From Candidatus Latescibacterota bacterium (GTDB taxonomy: Bacteria > Latescibacterota > UBA2968 > UBA8231): a stretch of 64,000 bases of DNA. Both the position numbers and the translations under genes were made by a program. Position 1 is the first letter of the stretch. Every line of letters starts with the position of its first letter. Shown here one piece after another: positions 32,332 to 40,384 of this stretch. A model generated the notes under the pieces. The model had not been told where the DNA came from, did not search any database, and saw only the letters and a list, made by a program, of their open reading frames with translations. The stretch covers positions 3,744,001-3,808,000 of the forward strand of contig OZ220089.1 in NCBI GenBank assembly GCA_964291625.2, in the 5' to 3' direction.

Positions 32332-33126
32332 ATGACGATCGACGTCCTCCTCCTCGGCGGCCGGGGCCAGATCGGCTCCGGCCTGCGCATCTACCTGCCG
32401 CGCCTCGACCCCGCCTACCGGTGCACCTCCGTCGACCTGCCCGGGTCCCCGGACAAGGCCGCGGGGGCGGCGGCCCGGCAGGAGTTCGTCGACCTCGACA
32501 TCGCCGCCGAGCCGGCCCGCGTGCGCGAGCTGATGGCCGGCCGCGACCTGGTCGTCTACCTGGCGCGCCAGGGGTCCCTGCCCGAGATGAACGCCATGAC
32601 CGACCGCGTCTTCGAGTCGGTCCTGGCCCAGGAACCGGTGCCCCTGGTCATCGGCGCCAGCTCCGTCCACGCCTGCGACGGCGCCTACAGCGTCAGCGAG
32701 GGCCCCTGGTCAATATGGGCCGAGCGCCGCTTCGACGAGCTGGACCCGCCCCCGGAGCGCGTCTCGAGCCTCATCGACGCCTGCCCCACCAACGACTACG
32801 GCCGCGAGAAGGCCCACGTCGAGGGCTGGTGCCGGCGGCTGGCCGCCCTCGGCCACGGCGCCGTGGCCGCCCGCTGGGGCGGCGTCAACACCGCCAACGC
32901 CATGACCGCGGAGAAGGGCTACTTCGCCCTCTGGTGCCACCAGGAGGACGCGGCCCGGTTCGTCCACGCCTGCTACACCGCCTGGCGCGCCGGGACCCTG
33001 CGCAGCGGCGCCCACTACTTCGTGGTCTCGGACAACACCCGCAACATCTTCGACATCGACCTGCCCCGCCGCGAGATCGGCTACCGGCCGGTGCACGACG
33101 CCGAGGTATTCTACGGCGGGGGGTGA
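32332..33126 (+). CDS. NAD-dependent epimerase/dehydratase (uronate-dehydrogenase-like SDR)
   Basis: GGRGQIG, ASSVHA, YGREK (YxxxK), VSDN, IGYRP. Confidence 0.85.
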   Translation: MTIDVLLLGGRGQIGSGLRIYLPRLDPAYRCTSVDLPGSPDKAAGAAARQEFVDLDIAAEPARVRELMAGRDLVVYLARQGSLPEMNAMTDRVFESVLAQEPVPLVIGASSVHACDGAYSVSEGPWSIWAERRFDELDPPPERVSSLIDACPTNDYGREKAHVEGWCRRLAALGHGAVAARWGGVNTANAMTAEKGYFALWCHQEDAARFVHACYTAWRAGTLRSGAHYFVVSDNTRNIFDIDLPRREIGYRPVHDAEVFYGGG

Positions 33127-33362
33127 GGGGCGAGTCAAAGCTCCGGCCGACGAGAAAGTGGTGTCCCGCCATGGTTGGACGATCTCCTGGCAATAGATTG
33201 GGAATCTGTGAAGCCGGTCAACTCCGGTGGCGGCCATAGACCGACATTTGTCCCGGTGTGGACCCGGTTGTACTCTCGTAGGGTTGGCTCGCCAACGGAA
33301 GGGGAACAACCCGGATCCTCGCCCCCTTTTTCGGTTCGCTAGCCAAGAAAGTGAGATTTGGC

Positions 33363-34304
33363 ATGGAGACACAACGCTACCAACTCCGCATCAGCGGCCT
33401 GAAGGAAGACGAAGGTCAGATCAAGATGACCACTCTTCAGCGGGTCTTGGAGGCCCTCCTCACAACAGCTGAAAGGACCACCCGCTTGCTTGCAACTGGC
33501 GCAGGTAGCGGGAGGGGGGCGAAACCTCGGTGGCTGGACGCCACCATTGATTTTACGGTAACAGGATTGAGGTCCGGATCGACCACTCTCGAGGTAGAGG
33601 CTCCCCAACTTGGTGAGACGGTCTACACGCAGTTCTCCCAAGAGGACTTCTGGAACAAGGTGCCCAGCTTGACGGAGACGGCGGTCGACCTGGCCGCTCA
33701 ATCGATCAACGAGACCCAGACCGATGATCCAGTTGGAGACTACTTTGATAGTTCGGTTCTGGAAGCGATCCTCAAGTTCCGGAAAGCGGCTGGGGTGGAC
33801 GGTGTCCGCTATGAGATGATCCCCCACGGGACAGCAGGGGGAAAATTCGCCTTGGACGACAGTTCTTCCGAATGCATCAAGGAGCGGTTGAGTGACATCC
33901 CGGCTCCAAGATCGTTCATAGTTAGTGGAAGACTCGACGAGATCAAACACGGGAACGGTCGCTTTCGCCTCTTGGTGAGTCCGAGGTCCGCACTCCATGG
34001 AAGGTTGGACACTGCATCATTGAGTGTAGAGGCTTTGCGTTCCCTGTGGGGGAAACAGACCAGCGTGGAGGGGATGGTGCACTTCAAGGCCAATGGCGAA
34101 CCCCGCTTCATCGAGGCTCGCCGGATCAGTAGTCAGCTGGAAGGGGATAGCGTCTTCGAGGAGATGCCATCAGTTCAGACTCAGAAGTCGGATGACCTGT
34201 TTCCGGTGGATGGAAGGCAGTTTGGGGCCTTCGACCCCATTGAGCTTGCGGGAGCATGGCCCGGCAAGGAACCCATCGAGGAGCTCCTGGACCAGCTCGA
34301 TTGA
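33363..34304 (+). CDS. Hypothetical 313-aa protein upstream of a PIN toxin (putative antitoxin/partner)
   Basis: Long ORF in a lower-GC segment, 11 nt before the PIN gene; acidic C-terminal tail. Confidence 0.75.
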   Translation: METQRYQLRISGLKEDEGQIKMTTLQRVLEALLTTAERTTRLLATGAGSGRGAKPRWLDATIDFTVTGLRSGSTTLEVEAPQLGETVYTQFSQEDFWNKVPSLTETAVDLAAQSINETQTDDPVGDYFDSSVLEAILKFRKAAGVDGVRYEMIPHGTAGGKFALDDSSSECIKERLSDIPAPRSFIVSGRLDEIKHGNGRFRLLVSPRSALHGRLDTASLSVEALRSLWGKQTSVEGMVHFKANGEPRFIEARRISSQLEGDSVFEEMPSVQTQKSDDLFPVDGRQFGAFDPIELAGAWPGKEPIEELLDQLD

Positions 34305-34315
34305 GTCATCTGTTC

Positions 34316-34786
34316 ATGGCACGCTTCCTCCTCGACACCAACCTGCTGCTCGGCTTCACCCGGGAGGCACCATGGGCTATGCGGGCTCGCAGAGAGTTCA
34401 ATCTCGGAGACCGGGAAACGATGGTCTTTACCTCTGCTATCTGCCGAGGAGAGATCCTCGCCCTTGCAGAGAAGAATGGTTGGGGTAGCACCAGACGAGC
34501 CCGCCTTGAGCAAGCTCTCAACGGGATCCCCACCCTGGACATCAACAGACCGAGGATTCTGGACGCGTACGCTCGGATTGACGCTTGGACCCATGGTAAG
34601 CCTGTGACTTCTCCGCGAAGTGCGCCGCCGCCCAAGCCGGCTGTGTCGATGAACCAAAATGATCTCTGGCTTGCTGCGACGGCTCACGCAAGCGGGGCGA
34701 CACTCCTGTCCACAGATACAGACTTCGCACATCTGGACGGCATATGGCTGAGGTTCGTCTATGTAGATCAACAAGGGCTGAGTTGA
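34316..34786 (+). CDS. vapC: PIN-domain (VapC-like) ribonuclease
   Basis: FLLDTN, GE, NDLWLAATA, LLSTDTDF.HL. Confidence 0.88.
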   Translation: MARFLLDTNLLLGFTREAPWAMRARREFNLGDRETMVFTSAICRGEILALAEKNGWGSTRRARLEQALNGIPTLDINRPRILDAYARIDAWTHGKPVTSPRSAPPPKPAVSMNQNDLWLAATAHASGATLLSTDTDFAHLDGIWLRFVYVDQQGLS

Positions 34787-34848
34787 TCATCGAAGTCTCA
34801 GAAGACACGCTGCCGAACATGACGGCCGGGGGACTTGAAAGAGCCTGA

Positions 34849-34877
34849 TTGACGAAGTTCGGTCACCTCCTTACCCT
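34849..34877 (+). promoter_or_regulatory. Sigma70-type promoter of the aspS leader
   Basis: TTGACG 34849-34854, 17-nt spacer, TACCCT 34872-34877. Confidence 0.6.
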
Positions 34878-34880
34878 CGA

Positions 34881-34973
34881 ATGACCATGACCACCCGTCA
34901 GAACGCCTTCACGCAGGACAATCCGACCAACTCGGGCGATAATAATCCGCCCGCCCCATCACGCGTGTTCTGA
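34881..34973 (+). CDS. Putative Asn/Asp-rich attenuator leader peptide
   Basis: [30 protein letters not shown] (5 Asn, 2 Asp); second ATG at 34887 lies next to the predicted transcription start. Confidence 0.7.
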
Positions 34974-35006
34974 CGACCCGCTCCAACTCCGATCCAGGAG
35001 ATCCCG

Positions 35007-35040
35007 ACCCGTCGCGAACACGCATCGCGGCGGGTTTTTT
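35007..35040 (+). terminator. Intrinsic terminator (attenuator) upstream of aspS
   Basis: ACCCGTCGCGA / TCGCGGCGGGT 11-bp stem, 7-nt loop, T run 35035-35040. Confidence 0.85.
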
Positions 35041-35073
35041 CGTGCCCATTCCGCAACCGGGAGACCGACTGAC

Positions 35074-36834
35074 ATGCATCCCTATCGCACGCACACATGC
35101 GGCGAGCTCCGCAGGCATCACGCGGGCCGGACCGTTCGCCTGAGCGGCTGGGTCCACCGCAGGAGGGACCACGGCGGCGTGCTCTTCCTGGACCTGCGCG
35201 ACCACTACGGCATCACCCAGCTCGTGGTCTCTCCGGAGAGCGACTTCGCCGCCAATGCGGCCAGGGTCCCCCGCGAGTCGGTGATCCGCGCCGAGGGCGA
35301 GGTGCGCGAACGGTCTCCCGAGGCGGTCAACAGGGCCATGGAGACCGGAGAGGTGGAGATCGCCGTGGGCGGGCTGGAGGTGCTGTCCGCGGCCGAGCCG
35401 CTCCCCTTCCCGGTGGCGGAGGAGACCGAGACAGGGGAGGGCCTGCGGCTGTCCTATCGATTTCTGGACTTGCGTCGCGCCGGGCTGCATCGGCGGATCC
35501 AGCTCCGCTCGGAGGTGATCGCCAGCATCCGGCGGCGCATGACGGCGATGGGCTTCGCCGAGTTCCAGACCCCGGTGCTCACCAGCAGCTCGCCCGAGGG
35601 AGCGCGCGACTACCTCGTGCCGAGCCGCCTCTACCCCGGCCGCTTCTACGCCCTGCCCCAGTCGCCGCAGCAGTTCAAGCAGCTGCTGATGGTCTCCGGC
35701 TTCGACCGCTACTTCCAGATCGCGCCCTGCTTCCGCGACGAGGATGCCCGGGCCGACCGCTCCCCCGGGGAGCACTACCAGTGCGACCTGGAGATGGCCT
35801 TCGTCGAGCAGGAGGACGTCTTGGCCGTGGTCGAGGAGCTGTTCTCCGGTCTGTTCCGGGAGTTCACCGACTGGCAGGTGACCGCCCAGCCCTTCCCCCG
35901 TTTCTCCCATGCCGAGGCGATGCTGCGCTTCGGCACGGACAAGCCGGACCTGCGCTTCGGGCTCGAGATCCAGGACCTGTCACACATTTTCGCGGAATCC
36001 TCATTCAGAATGTTCCGGGGAATGGTCGAGAAAGGTGGGGTCGTGCGCGCCCTGTGCGTTCCCGGACTCGAGGCCCGGCCGCGCTCGCTCTTCGACGGTC
36101 TCGAGGCGTTCGTGAAGGACTCGGGCGGTCAGGGGCTGGCCTGGCTCATCAGCGGGGCTGAGCCCACGGGGTCGATCGCCGCGGCCCTGGAAGAGAGCAC
36201 GATCCAACGCATCACCGAGGCGTGCTCGGCCGGCCCGGGGTCGGCGGTCTTCCTCATCGCGGGATCGCCGGAGGAGGCGCCGAACCTGGCGGGACGGCTG
36301 CGCCTGCATCTGGCGGACCGGCTCGACCTGCGCCGGGAGGGGTGCTACGAATTCTGCTGGATCGTCGACTTCCCGATGTACGAGTGGGACGAGGAACGGG
36401 ACTGCGCCGCCTTCTCGCACAACCCCTTCTCCATGCCCCAGGGCGGGATGGAGGCCCTGGAGACGCGGCCACCCCTGGAGATCAAGGCGTACCAGTACGA
36501 CATCGTCTGCAACGGCGTGGAGCTGTCGAGCGGCGCCATCCGCAACCACCGTCCGGACATCATGTACAAGGCCTTCGAGATCGCCGGGTACCCTCGCCAG
36601 GAGGTGGAGCGCCGGTTCGGGTGCATGATCCGCGCCCTGCACTACGGCGCTCCGCCCCACGGCGGCATCGCCCCGGGCATCGACCGCATCGTCATGCTCT
36701 TGGCGGACGAGCTGAACATCCGGGAGGTGATCGCCTTCCCCATGAACCAGCACGCCCAGGACCCGCTCATGGGGGCTCCGGGGGAGGTCTCCGCCGAGCA
36801 GCTCCGAGAGCTTCACCTGGCGGTGCGGGATTGA
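35074..36834 (+). CDS. aspS: Aspartate--tRNA ligase, probably non-discriminating Asp/Asn type
   Basis: [57 protein letters not shown]. Confidence 0.97.
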
Positions 36835-36917: not shown

Positions 36918-37450
36918 ATGACCGAAGCCCGAAAGACCGTCAGGCTGTACGAAGCCCTGGAGCTGCGGGCCGAGTACGACGGCCGCATCAAGACCCTGCG
37001 CGACTGCCTGCCCGAGTCGCGCCAGAACCGGGGGCTGTTCTCCCGGGACAACGACTCCTCGCGCCGGCCGGCTCCCGGCTTCAGCCTCTCCGGGGCGCGG
37101 GACCAGCTGCGCGCCCTCGAGTTCAAGCGCCGCAAGCTGAACGCGGCGATCCAGCGGGCCAACTTCGAGCACCGCCTGGAGCACGAGGGGGATGACCTGA
37201 GCCTCACCGAGGCCCTGGAGACGCGCAAGGCGCTCAACGAGCGCCTCGGGGAGCTGCACACGCAGGTCGTCGACTCCGCGTACGAGCGCGTCCTCCACAA
37301 GGAGGAGCGGGACATCGTCGAGGAGAGCGAGCTGCCCTACGCCGACTGCCTCACCCGGCTGGACGAGGCGCGCGTCGAGTTCCGGCGGCTCAACCGGCGG
37401 ATCCGGCGGCCTCCTTCGAAGTCGAGGTGGAGTTCGCCGACGAGCGGTAG
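36918..37450 (+). CDS. DIP1984-like helical coiled-coil protein, with an apparent 1-nt frameshift near 37410
   Basis: Two repeats: RLYEALELR...IQRANFE and SLTEALETR...IRR(A)SFEVEVEFADER-TAG (37448-37450) once one base is restored; as assembled it reads on to 37508. Confidence 0.65.
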
Positions 37451-37457
37451 CACCTCC

Positions 37458-37652
37458 GAACGGAAGAGACAGGGGAGCAAGCGCGACTGCGCCGGCGACG
37501 GCGCATAGCCCAGGAGCGGCGCGCACTGCGACGCGTGTCTCGGGGATGACAACCTACGGTCCGGCCAAGCCGCTCAACGACTCAGCGGCAGACCCCTGAG
37601 CACGGGCAGCCCCTCAGCGAAACAGCCACAGGGCTCCGCGTCTCTTCCGTTC
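37458..37652 (+). ncRNA. Candidate structured non-coding RNA (~195 nt); strand inferred
   Basis: Perfect 13-bp end-to-end helix plus nested helices and a GNRA-capped hairpin (see findings). Confidence 0.55.
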
Positions 37653-37864: not shown

Positions 37865-40384
37865 ATGCACCGACTCATCGCGGTGCTGGCCGCCGCGCTC
37901 CTCTTCGCAGGGGCCGTGGGCGCCGGCGCCGACGAACAGCACTCTCACACGGACACCAGCGATGCCCGCATGGAGGGCTGGATGGCCCATCCCCAGCGCA
38001 CGGCCCGCGCCCTGCGGGCGGAGACGCCGCCGCGCCTCGACGGGGTCCTCGACGAGGAGGTCTGGCTGCGCGCCCCGGTTCACGAGGGGTTCACCCAGAG
38101 CGACCCGGACCAGGGCGAGCCGGCATCGCTGCGCACGACCTTCCAGGTGGCCTACGACGACGACGCCCTCTACATCGGCGGCATCTGCTACGACGATCCA
38201 GACAGCGTCACCGCCCGGCTGGCGCGGCGGGACGAGTGGCGCGAGCGCGACTTCTTCGAGGTCAGCCTCGACCCCCACCACGACCACCAGACGGGGGTCT
38301 GGTTCACCGTCGGGCCCTCGGGCTGGCTCGGGGACGGGATCCTCTACAACGACGAGGACTACGACGACGGCTGGGACAGCGTCGCCGAGGTGGCCACGGC
38401 GAGGCGCGCCGACGGCTGGAGCCTGGAGCTGAAGATCCCCTACCACGTCCTGCGCTTCGGCGAGCAGGAGACCTACACCTGGGGGATCAACGTCTTCCGC
38501 AAGGTCTCCCGCCGCGCCGAGTGGACGGCGTGGAGCTTCACGCCCCGGGGGGTCACCGGCTACGCCTCGCGCTTCGGACACCTGGAGGGGATCGAGGGCA
38601 TCCGGCCGCACCGCAGCCTCGAGGTCCTGCCTTTCGCCCTCGGCCGCGGCACCCTGTCGCAGGGAGCCGCCGGCGATAACGACCTGTTCTCCTCGGCCGG
38701 CGTCGACCTGCGCTACGGCCTGTCGTCCAACATCTCCCTCAACGCCACCGTCAACCCGGACTTCGGCCAGGTCGAGGGCGACCCGGCGGTGCTCAACCTG
38801 GGGGTATTCGAGACCTTCCTCCGCGAGCGCCGGCCCTTCTTTCTGGAGGGCATCCAGATCTTCGAGTCGCCCGGGCCGTTCATCGTCAGCATCAACAAGC
38901 CCTCCACCCTGTTCCACTCGCGGCGCATCGGCCGGGCGCCCTCCCGCTTCGACCTGCCCGACGACAGCGACGAGGTCGAGCGGCCGGAAAACACCACGAT
39001 CCTCGGCGCCGCCAAGATCTCGGGAAAGACCGCCGGGCGCACCGCCTTCGGCCTGCTCAACGCCGTCACCGGCCGCGAGCGGGCCCTCGTCGAACAGCGC
39101 CTCACCGTCGCCGAGACGGGCCTGGTCGACACGGTGCGCCGCCGCGTCGAGGTCGAGCCCCTCACCAACTACTTCATCGGCCGAGTGCAGCAGGATCTGC
39201 TCACCAGCTCCACCGCCGGGGCCCAGCTCACCGCGGTCAACGGCGCCGGCTTCGAGCCCGCCTACGTCGGGGCCGGGGACGTGCACCTCAGGTGGGGGGA
39301 CAACGCCTACCGGCTCTACAGCCGCTTCGCCGCCAGCCTCGCCGGGCAGGAGGAGGAGCGGGGCAGCGGCTGGGAGGGGGCCCTCTACTTCCAGAAGTCG
39401 GGGGGCGCCTTCGGCGGTCAGGCCTACATGGACGCCAACTCGCCCGGCTTCGAGGCCAACGACCTGGGCTACATGCGGCGCAACGACCGCATTCAGGCCG
39501 GCGTCCACGTCTACCACGACAGGCTCGACCCCTGGTGGCTGGCCCGCCGCTCCGGGTTCAACCTCAATGCCTGGACCCACTGGAACTTCGACGGCGAGCG
39601 CATCTGGCGGGGCGTCAACTTCAACACCTGGAACAACCTCCACAACTACTGGGGGTTCTGGATGGGCGTCAGCCGCAACCTCGCCGCCGTCGACGACCTG
39701 GTCACCCGCGGCGGCCCCCCGATGGTCTCACCGGCCAGCACCTGGATCGGCATGAACGTGTGGGCCGACGACCGCAAGCCGGTGAGCGGCCGGCTCTGGT
39801 CGAACCTCAGGTGGGGCCGGGGCGGCGACAACCTGGGCACGTGGGTGGGGTTCAACCTCGAGTTGCGCCCCATGTCGCGGCTGTCCCTGGAGGTCGGGCC
39901 GGGCTACGGCTACGACCGCAACTTCGCCCAGTGGGTGGAGAGCAGCGACGACGACGGCGACGGCGAGGACGACCGCTTCGTCTTCGGCGAGCTGGAGAGC
40001 CGCGTCCTCGAGGTCGGCCTGCGCGGCGACTGGGCCTTCACGCCGGCCCTGAGCCTGCAGCTCTACCTGCAGCCCTTCGTGACCACCGGCGACTACGGCG
40101 CCATCAAGGAGCTGGCGAGGCCGCGCTCGTACGAGTTTCTCCCCTACGACGGCCTCGAGGAGAACCCCGACTTCCACCGCCGCGCCCTGCGATCCAACCT
40201 GGTCCTGCGCTGGGAGTACCGGCCCGGCAGCACCCTCTTCGCCGTCTGGCAGCAGAGCCGGGACCGCGACTTCGACGGGGTCCGCGACCCCCGGTTCCGG
40301 CCCGCCGGCGACCTGACCCGCGCCTTCGCCGACGACGGCGACAGCATCTTCCTGATCAAGCTCAACCGCTGGTTCGGGCTGTAG
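37865..40384 (+). CDS. CBM9-like/DUF5916 outer-membrane protein
   Basis: Signal peptide, PRLDGVLDEEVW, GWSLELKIPY..LRF, NATVNPDFGQVE.D, ERRPFFLEG, LRWEYRPGS.LF.VW. Confidence 0.85.
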   Translation: MHRLIAVLAAALLFAGAVGAGADEQHSHTDTSDARMEGWMAHPQRTARALRAETPPRLDGVLDEEVWLRAPVHEGFTQSDPDQGEPASLRTTFQVAYDDDALYIGGICYDDPDSVTARLARRDEWRERDFFEVSLDPHHDHQTGVWFTVGPSGWLGDGILYNDEDYDDGWDSVAEVATARRADGWSLELKIPYHVLRFGEQETYTWGINVFRKVSRRAEWTAWSFTPRGVTGYASRFGHLEGIEGIRPHRSLEVLPFALGRGTLSQGAAGDNDLFSSAGVDLRYGLSSNISLNATVNPDFGQVEGDPAVLNLGVFETFLRERRPFFLEGIQIFESPGPFIVSINKPSTLFHSRRIGRAPSRFDLPDDSDEVERPENTTILGAAKISGKTAGRTAFGLLNAVTGRERALVEQRLTVAETGLVDTVRRRVEVEPLTNYFIGRVQQDLLTSSTAGAQLTAVNGAGFEPAYVGAGDVHLRWGDNAYRLYSRFAASLAGQEEERGSGWEGALYFQKSGGAFGGQAYMDANSPGFEANDLGYMRRNDRIQAGVHVYHDRLDPWWLARRSGFNLNAWTHWNFDGERIWRGVNFNTWNNLHNYWGFWMGVSRNLAAVDDLVTRGGPPMVSPASTWIGMNVWADDRKPVSGRLWSNLRWGRGGDNLGTWVGFNLELRPMSRLSLEVGPGYGYDRNFAQWVESSDDDGDGEDDRFVFGELESRVLEVGLRGDWAFTPALSLQLYLQPFVTTGDYGAIKELARPRSYEFLPYDGLEENPDFHRRALRSNLVLRWEYRPGSTLFAVWQQSRDRDFDGVRDPRFRPAGDLTRAFADDGDSIFLIKLNRWFGL

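Follow-up and report, generated by a model that had tools for sequence, protein, structure and literature searches.

Why should a short, asparagine-rich open reading frame (ORF) and a transcription terminator stand between the promoter and the coding sequence of a second aspartate--tRNA ligase gene? The question is raised by a 64,000-nucleotide (nt) stretch of contig OZ220089.1 (assembly GCA_964291625.2; hereafter the window, numbered from its first letter), where a leader at 34849-35040 precedes aspS2 (35074-36834, + strand, like all the leader features described below). The window belongs to a genome of 5.9 Mb, about 70% GC and an estimated 95% complete, whose close relatives' records carry the label Candidatus Latescibacterota. 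The reading that we favour, with a probability of roughly 85%, is that the leader acts as a ribosome-mediated leader-peptide attenuator with Asn regulatory codons, controlling the accessory aspS2; this assessment rests on comparative sequence analysis. The underlying mechanism is that of the classical attenuator, and what is new here is the Asn specificity, the aspS target, the probably leaderless ORF and the often tandem arrangement.

The leader begins with a promoter read in the sequence, formed by a -35 hexamer TTGACG (34849-34854), a 17-nt spacer and a -10 hexamer TACCCT (34872-34877), in agreement with a preliminary description of this locus. It is conserved in relatives, since among 34 orthologous upstream regions 24 have TTGAC[AG]-N16/17-TAnnnT directly 5' of the first leader unit. 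The 34 regions, which remain after dropping four duplicates and one contig without upstream DNA, come from 32 of the 33 genomes with aspS2, from the broken copy of genome G021 and from one metagenome-assembled contig with another phylum label; the survey covered an order of 76 genomes, all of one family. In the same 24 regions the start codon is found 8-11 nt past the -10 hexamer, leaving no space for a Shine-Dalgarno sequence. The ORF of the window (34887-34973, 28 codons, or 30 when counted from ATG 34881), given by the ORF list and the alignment of relatives, stops at TGA 34971-34973 and holds five Asn codons (AAC 34902, AAT 34920, AAC 34929, AAT 34941, AAT 34944) and two Asp codons (34917, 34938), a content that re-reading confirmed together with the two alternative ATGs. 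As the -10 hexamer ends only 3 and 9 nt before ATGs 34881 and 34887, no Shine-Dalgarno fits here either. ATG 34887, 9 nt after the hexamer, aligns with the start codon of the relatives, and on account of this alignment and of the conserved promoter spacing it is taken as the start rather than 34881. The leader mRNA is thus probably leaderless or nearly so, as had been suggested, with a transcription start deduced from the promoter position. A promoter scanner had passed over this promoter, TACCCT matching at only three of six positions, and returned AGGACA-N17-GATAAT (34915-34943, within the ORF), which was dropped because neither hexamer is conserved in relatives.

The composition of this small ORF is far outside the genome norm, as established on 1,892 long ORFs of the source genome (1,038,575 codons): Asn makes up 5 of its 30 codons (17%) against 2.0% genome-wide, and three of the five are AAT, a codon that accounts for 6.7% of genomic Asn codons. 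The main stall site is predicted at GAT-AAT-AAT (D-N-N, 34938-34946), which matches an NNN(N) run of the relatives, is followed by Pro codons and consists of codons rare in this genome (AAT as above, GAT 13% of Asp codons). Downstream of the ORF lies the intrinsic terminator already announced before aspS (35006-35040), with a 5' arm at 35006-35017, a 7-nt loop at 35018-35024, a 3' arm at 35025-35036 and a run of six T at 35035-35040; its stem (35006-35036) counts 12 pairs, 8 of them G-C, and stands 38 nt before aspS. The Shine-Dalgarno sequence of aspS2, GGGAG (35059-35063), is 10 nt ahead of its ATG at 35074. Both strands of the whole genome were scanned for at least three consecutive Asn/Asp codons (at least two of them Asn), with a stop in the same frame no more than 25 codons on and a strong terminator at most 110 nt away. 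A single site was retrieved in the 5.9 Mb, the leader at 34849-35040, and the scan found no similar leader before gatCAB, asnS or aspS1 in the source genome.

The leader can be laid out in four segments of the trp type, with a 1:2 helix, a 2:3 antiterminator and a 3:4 terminator, segments 3 and 4 being the two arms of the terminator. Segment 1 (CGTCAGAACGC, 34896-34906, codons R-Q-N-A) is the predicted anti-antiterminator strand, and pairs with 34965-34975 over 11 base pairs (bp) in the minimum-energy fold of the full leader (z = -3.3). Segment 2 (GCGTGTTCTGACG, 34963-34975), which spans the last codons and contains the stop TGA, can have either segment 1 or segment 3 as partner. The antiterminator that the preliminary description had proposed, with 13 bp, one bulged C and one G-U, was recovered by folding as a pairing of 34963-34975 with 35010-35014 and 35016-35023, and it excludes the terminator; leaving out segment 1 makes it the minimum-energy fold (z = -3.4; none of 200 shuffles was as good). 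Taken in isolation, the helices amount to -14.8 kcal/mol for 1:2, -17.5 for 2:3 (-25.2 with the inner hairpin) and -21.2 for 3:4. That description had missed the 1:2 helix, which completes the four-segment design, as well as the status of aspS as an accessory second copy. A small hairpin seen in the folds between segments 2 and 3 (CTCCGATCCAGGAG, 34987-35000) is not conserved in sequence among relatives. In the window's genus, CCGCCCG (34948-34954, Pro-Pro-Ala codons) can also pair with CGGCGGG of the terminator 3' arm (35028-35034) and extend the antiterminator fold; relatives have CCGCTGG at the former site.

The preliminary description had made its attenuator depend on conservation of the ORF and the pairing in relatives, and this design was retrieved in every region compared: an Asn-run ORF and an intrinsic terminator are present in 34/34 distinct upstream regions, the ORF stopping some 32-35 nt before the terminator. 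By sequence, at least three unrelated types of leader unit can be distinguished, which have only the Asn run and the design in common. Type A, that of the window, encodes M(M)TRQNDRxQNNNNPLAPLRVF*, with the end ...QNNNNPLAPLRVF* and a terminator of the form CCCGTCGCGAACACGC...GCGGCGGG, and occupies the first position in tandem loci; segment 2 is almost invariant among its 29 sequences. Type B encodes MTFRHKHTARAFSHNNDDNNPAIRARWRWP*, with the end ...SHNNDDNNPAIRARWRWP*, has a terminator unlike that of type A and its own AGGAG 8 nt before its ATG, and is always the second of a tandem pair. Type C (...NNNQGNNNRTSxGGTAxAG*) has a third type of terminator and is restricted to one genus. More divergent single units are found in G017, G041, G091 and a contig labelled Moanabacter. 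Units are in tandem at 16 loci and single at 17, one further locus (L119) being cut by the contig end inside its type-B unit. The tandem loci, with type A and then type B between the promoter and aspS2, are L008, L116, L118, L120, L121, L123-L125, L127-L129, L131-L134 and L142; the first unit of L132 is interrupted by a premature TAG, and its start is degenerate. A contig of DNA run X5 departs from the window sequence at 35040 and goes on with the start of a type-B unit, which indicates a co-occurring strain with the tandem form in that sample.

This conservation bears directly on an alternative according to which the hairpin would merely terminate the upstream PIN-domain unit and the small ORF would be a chance frame in an A+T-richer spacer. 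Some observations do agree with it: terminator-like sites in the region number 2 where shuffles give 1.8, so that the terminator by itself is not significant, AAT is less unexpected in the 56-60% GC island that the leader borders, and one contig of an RNA library begins at 34767 and extends into the leader. The upstream neighbours however vary from locus to locus (the PIN-domain gene in the window, lysS, an asd-like gene or others elsewhere), and the ORF and the terminator still go with aspS2 at all 34 loci. In 24 of them a conserved promoter separates the upstream gene from the ORF, and the 38 nt between the terminator and aspS leave no space for another promoter. Unrelated unit types all retain the Asn run, and the genome contains a single such site. 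On these comparative grounds the alternative is largely refuted, and we regard it as extremely improbable.

The codon content of the leaders points to asparagine as the signal of the attenuator. Over 49 units and 1,281 codons, Asn reaches 18.4% against 2.0% in genome ORFs, and 131 of the 236 Asn codons (55.5%) are AAT against 6.7% genome-wide. At least two adjacent Asn codons occur in 48 of the 49 units, and the great majority of the units have an ORF with a start codon. Within the run, relatives differ by AAT/AAC or Asn/Asp exchanges while the pairing flanks are nearly invariant, which is the mark of a translated frame selected for the identity of its codons. The sensing of both Asn- and Asp-tRNA, as first proposed, was therefore upheld for its Asn part only: Asp represents 5.1% of the leader codons against 6.0% genome-wide and is not enriched, though Asp codons are often inside the run, and only 14 of 65 leader Asp codons are GAT.

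A ribosome-dependent switch could also respond to something other than tRNA-Asn, either to a nascent-peptide or N-N-Pro stall reporting on EF-P or translation capacity, or mainly to Asp-tRNA(Asp). Proline-containing motifs are known stall sites, and types A and B do have a Pro codon after the run (NNP, and NNPP in the window's genus), while Asp codons are within the run in 16/16 type-B units and the enzyme itself charges tRNA-Asp. Proline is however not universal, being absent after the run in type C (NNNR/H), in L141 (LNNRLN) and in L041 (NNNTAN), and the sole invariant of the units is the presence of at least two adjacent Asn codons. The lack of Asp enrichment speaks against an Asp signal, and the skew towards AAT, which is read by wobble, is what would be expected from selection for sensitivity to tRNA-Asn supply. 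We consider these other signals improbable, the least so among the alternatives, and retain Asn codons as those regulating the attenuator.

Part of the type-A peptide, namely its ends (TRQN and RVF*), is conserved through RNA pairing and not for a peptide function, and terminator/antiterminator alternatives are common to all systems of premature termination. The element could on these grounds be viewed as a ligand-, protein- or tRNA-binding RNA switch (a riboswitch, a T-box-like element or protein-mediated antitermination) with an incidental ORF, and clostridial relatives of aspS do have a T-box. The Rfam scan called for by the preliminary description returned no family at the gathering score over the whole window and nothing relevant at E<10 in 34700-35200. 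In particular, the T-box model RF00230 had no match in the window at its gathering score or in 34700-35200 at E<10, while the same search finds a clostridial aspS T-box, and no match was obtained with the Rfam Trp, His, Leu, Thr and Phe leader models at the same thresholds. The matches obtained at E<10 were dismissed as chance-level: one to CrfA over the hairpin of the terminator (E 0.62), one to a CRISPR repeat and one to a togavirus element. Types A, B and C share no common RNA sequence or aptamer-like fold, whereas all three have a translatable frame with a start codon (and a Shine-Dalgarno sequence in type B), an Asn run and a stop in the antiterminator strand. Variation in the run is synonymous or exchanges Asn and Asp, and the leader, of about 150 nt and mostly ORF, is too short for a T-box. 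An RNA switch of this kind appears very improbable, less so only than chance association with an upstream terminator.

The search was extended to distant AspRS (aspartyl-tRNA synthetase) relatives, 49-70% identical, which gave 153 loci on contigs of genomes and metagenomes; upstream DNA of at least 150 nt was available for 139. Three of the 139 had an Asn run and were rejected for looking like T-box leaders by eye, Rfam having been run on L107 only. These three (L107:3749-3938, L111 and L221) are clostridial aspS genes with what looks like a T-box leader, L107 matching RF00230 at 56.3 bits and E 1.2e-11, below the gathering score of 93. They were false positives of the scan, in which the region around GAATAACAAC had been translated as an Asn run; the specifier of the clostridial aspS T-box may be an Asn codon. 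Conversely the metagenome locus L143 does have a genuine type-C unit, passed over by the scan since the match began inside lysS.

If the leader is an attenuator, its operation can be described as follows. Transcription would start at or a few bases before ATG 34887, and the 28-codon ORF would be translated leaderless or nearly so. With plentiful Asn-tRNA(Asn), the ribosome would reach TGA 34971 and cover segment 2, so that the 3:4 terminator forms and transcription ends at the T-run at 35040; if translation fails, segment 1 would pair with segment 2 and the terminator would form as well. When Asn-tRNA(Asn) is scarce, the ribosome would stall either at AAC 34902, within segment 1, or at the rare AAT-AAT of 34941-34946, between segments 1 and 2. 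The stalled ribosome would block the 1:2 helix, the free segment 2 would pair with the emerging segment 3, and the terminator would be pre-empted, allowing aspS2 to be transcribed.

With the RNA cut before segment 4 and with the stalled ribosome and its upstream sequence masked, the fold of lowest energy is the antiterminator, both in the window and in unit 1 of L125. In types B and C, in L009, in L141 and in unit 2 of L142, a footprint at the Asn run leaves the antiterminator with segment 3, which is lost when the footprint lies on the stop codon instead. Covariation was evaluated on 29 type-A sequences with 500 shuffles for each helix, the 16 type-B sequences being nearly identical in their paired parts. 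The terminator is paired in 98.3% of alignment cells, with three pairs changed on both sides, which none of the 500 shuffles reaches. The antiterminator is paired in 96.0% of cells, with two pairs and three cells changed on both sides (two of 500 shuffles for the cells), as in the replacement of GTGTTC/GAACAC by GTGCTC/GAGCAT in G017. The 1:2 helix is paired in 83.1% of cells and its weak covariation is matched by 51-131 of the 500 shuffles. A stronger argument than covariation comes from types B, C and the divergent units, whose different sequences arrive at the same logic.

Several points weigh against the attenuator or against parts of it. Covariation is thin overall, as the sequences are close kin, and that of the 1:2 helix is no better than in shuffles. 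When the full leader is folded at equilibrium, the terminator survives all ribosome masks in the window and in the majority of units, so that the choice between terminator and antiterminator must be kinetic, as in trp; such folding did not discriminate between the states and was given up in favour of folding RNA that ends before segment 4. Type A has its main Asn run between segments 1 and 2 and not within segment 1, where a single Asn codon (34902) lies, and a mask limited to the footprint at the main run still predicts the 1:2 helix; the disruption of 1:2 by a ribosome at that run is argued on steric grounds. Where transcription begins, its arrest at 35040, the stalling of ribosomes, read-through and the role in the cell are all inferred. 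On the transcript side, close-relative contigs of metatranscriptome run X1, 93-99% similar to the stretch, give no support to the predicted start, one of them (34767-34949) beginning 82 nt 5' of the -35 hexamer, upstream of the promoter; contigs show no transcript ends. Another X1 contig bridges 34920-35218 (leader end, terminator and aspS start), which is a weak hint of co-transcription, contigs showing neither ends nor strand and the library possibly containing DNA. Concerning the enzyme and its role, the RRDHGG motif that could mark a non-discriminating AspRS is present in both AspRS copies, GatB and asnS are found in 73 and 69 of the 76 genomes regardless of aspS2, and 13 genomes, several of them nearly closed, lack both aspS2 and an AsnB match. 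aspS2 is thus not required for asparagine supply in this family.

The regulated gene encodes a bacterial-type AspRS of 586 amino acids, identified by NF001750 (790.6 bits, cut-off 443) and by the Pfam domains PF00152 (tRNA-synt_2), PF01336 (OB anticodon) and PF02938 (GAD). It is the second copy in the genome, 45% identical to the housekeeping AspRS located on contig 2, and the class-IIb matches of the genome are four, these two enzymes, an AsnRS and an EpmA-like protein. Intact aspS2 orthologues (63-100% identity) are present in 33 of the 76 genomes, and a housekeeping-type AspRS in 41/41 genomes examined. Remnants in at least five further genomes (G007, G009, G013, G021, G023), in the form of pieces 57-90% identical and some with in-frame stops, indicate repeated loss of aspS2 in the family. 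Next in similarity come AspRS at 49-70% identity, for the most part housekeeping enzymes from Alphaproteobacteria, Planctomycetota and other phyla. Both AspRS copies of the source genome have the His of the anticodon-domain motif RRRDHGG, which we take to be linked to AspRS specificity. That His is also found in PDB chains named Asp/Asn ligase by their depositors (4wj3, 4rmf), and Leu takes its place in the Asp-only enzyme of Thermus; this is a correlation over few chains and does not constitute a test of non-discriminating status.

GatB is present in the source genome, as are GlnRS (694 bits) and, against what the preliminary description had expected, asnS (479 bits, cut-off 342.6). A profile search of this genome, an estimated 95% complete, found no AsnA, and no AsnB at the cut-off, the best score being 64.5 for a cut-off of 267.1 and the matches corresponding to other amidotransferases or ATP-pyrophosphatases. 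The single tRNA-Asn(GTT) has a U1-A72 pair and the single tRNA-Asp a G1-C72 pair. According to the available excerpts of PMC4206432, Thermus, Deinococcus and Bdellovibrio possess AsnRS, GlnRS and GatCAB without AsnA or AsnB, make asparagine on tRNA-Asn with GatCAB and a non-discriminating AspRS, and use U1-A72 as GatCAB identity element. An Asn-codon sensor before an extra AspRS fits this inventory, as scarce Asn-tRNA(Asn) would induce the enzyme of the indirect route. AspRS would then be raised for tRNA-dependent synthesis of Asn-tRNA(Asn) by AspRS and GatCAB when free asparagine is short, and feeding this route under asparagine shortage is the likely role. An AsnB-family match is found in 8 of the 33 genomes with aspS2 against 30 of the 43 without; this tendency is driven by two genera, kin are non-independent and the genes co-occur in five other genera, so that we use this complementarity as a hint only.

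Some loci display variants of the arrangement. In one genus (L138:1270-1414, L139, L143) no stop codon separates the Asn-rich tract from the upstream lysS, whose frame it continues; the lysS ORF of L138 (2-1414) matches NF001756 with 522 bits and the profile ends at residue 425/470, and in such loci what serves as leader peptide may be the last 45 residues of LysRS, a C-terminal tail. L140 has this tract as a separate ORF of 24 codons, and the lysS of L014 is frameshifted. As for the window itself, a GC island (33100-34900, 56-60% GC in a 70% GC genome) lies directly 5' of the leader and holds a PIN-domain ORF (34256-34786) together with others that match no Pfam family; the island is possibly a toxin-antitoxin or mobile insert. 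On the 3' side of aspS2, the same strand carries a DUF6847-like ORF (36918-37508, 30.9 bits) and a DUF5916/CBM9-like ORF of 839 amino acids (37865-40384). With no gatCAB or asn genes nearby, aspS2 looks monocistronic or paired with genes of unknown function.

With an Asn attenuator before an AspRS gene, the mechanism would gain a further amino acid, reach a candidate phylum that is uncultured and little studied, and include a sensed tRNA, tRNA-Asn, that is not the canonical substrate of the enzyme. Sensing tRNA-Asn makes sense only if the AspRS feeds tRNA-dependent asparagine synthesis, and the element thereby predicts which AspRS paralogue is non-discriminating. The runs heavy in AAT suggest that codon choice tunes the sensor, and the tandem units with a probable leaderless start offer a compact test bed for attenuator sensitivity. 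A more complete scenario can be put forward tentatively, at odds somewhat short of even. The leader would be the first Asn-responsive leader-peptide attenuator, a leaderless and often tandem mini-ORF that switches on a horizontally acquired non-discriminating AspRS at low asparagine and opens the AspRS2 and GatCAB route in bacteria whose asparagine synthetase was lost. The mischarging enzyme would be kept off when asparagine is available, and in one genus the sensor would be fused to the 3' end of lysS, the ribosomes that finish LysRS doing the sensing.

To our knowledge, the repertoire of leader-peptide attenuation consists of Trp, His, Leu, Thr, Ile/Val and Phe systems, with pheST and, by prediction, trpS and leuS as synthetase genes; a full-text literature search, which leaves aside subscription-only literature, found no description of an Asn-codon attenuator. 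The leader shares with the trp, his, leu and thr attenuators a predicted 1:2, 2:3 and 3:4 logic, a stop by or in segment 2 and a run of regulatory codons, and differs from them by a main run placed between segments 1 and 2 and by a target that is not a biosynthetic operon. The nearest parallel in function is an Asn T-box controlling the tRNA-dependent amidation genes of Clostridium acetobutylicum, which a 2012 study (J Biol Chem 287:20382) reportedly describes, judging by its title. There too, an additional AspRS is apparently tied to the charging of tRNA-Asn through premature termination in a leader; in Clostridium the RNA binds the uncharged tRNA directly, whereas here a ribosome translating Asn codons is predicted to sense it, and this ribosome-based counterpart would represent a convergent regulatory logic.

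The system also recalls those of Deinococcus, Thermus and Bdellovibrio by its gene inventory and by the U1-A72 pair of the source tRNA-Asn, and those of Thermus and Deinococcus by the presence of a second AspRS. As far as the excerpts of PMC4206432 go, the second AspRS of Thermus and Deinococcus is of archaeal type, unlike the two copies found here, which are both of bacterial type with a GAD domain, and no attenuator is described in them for these systems or for that of Bdellovibrio. Synthetase precedents are given by the excerpted text of PMC1262725, which reports the pheST attenuator of E. coli and other gamma-proteobacteria and predicts trpS2 and leuS attenuators in Streptomyces. These have in common with the present leader a leader-peptide attenuator before a synthetase gene, an ORF rich in the relevant codons and terminator/antiterminator alternatives. 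Within the same limits of that text, the leader of aspS2 differs from them by the absence of similarity to Rfam leaders, the phylum, the probably leaderless ORF and the frequent tandem units, and by its specificity: Asn codons would be sensed while the enzyme is an AspRS, so that the signal is not the canonical product of the enzyme under control.

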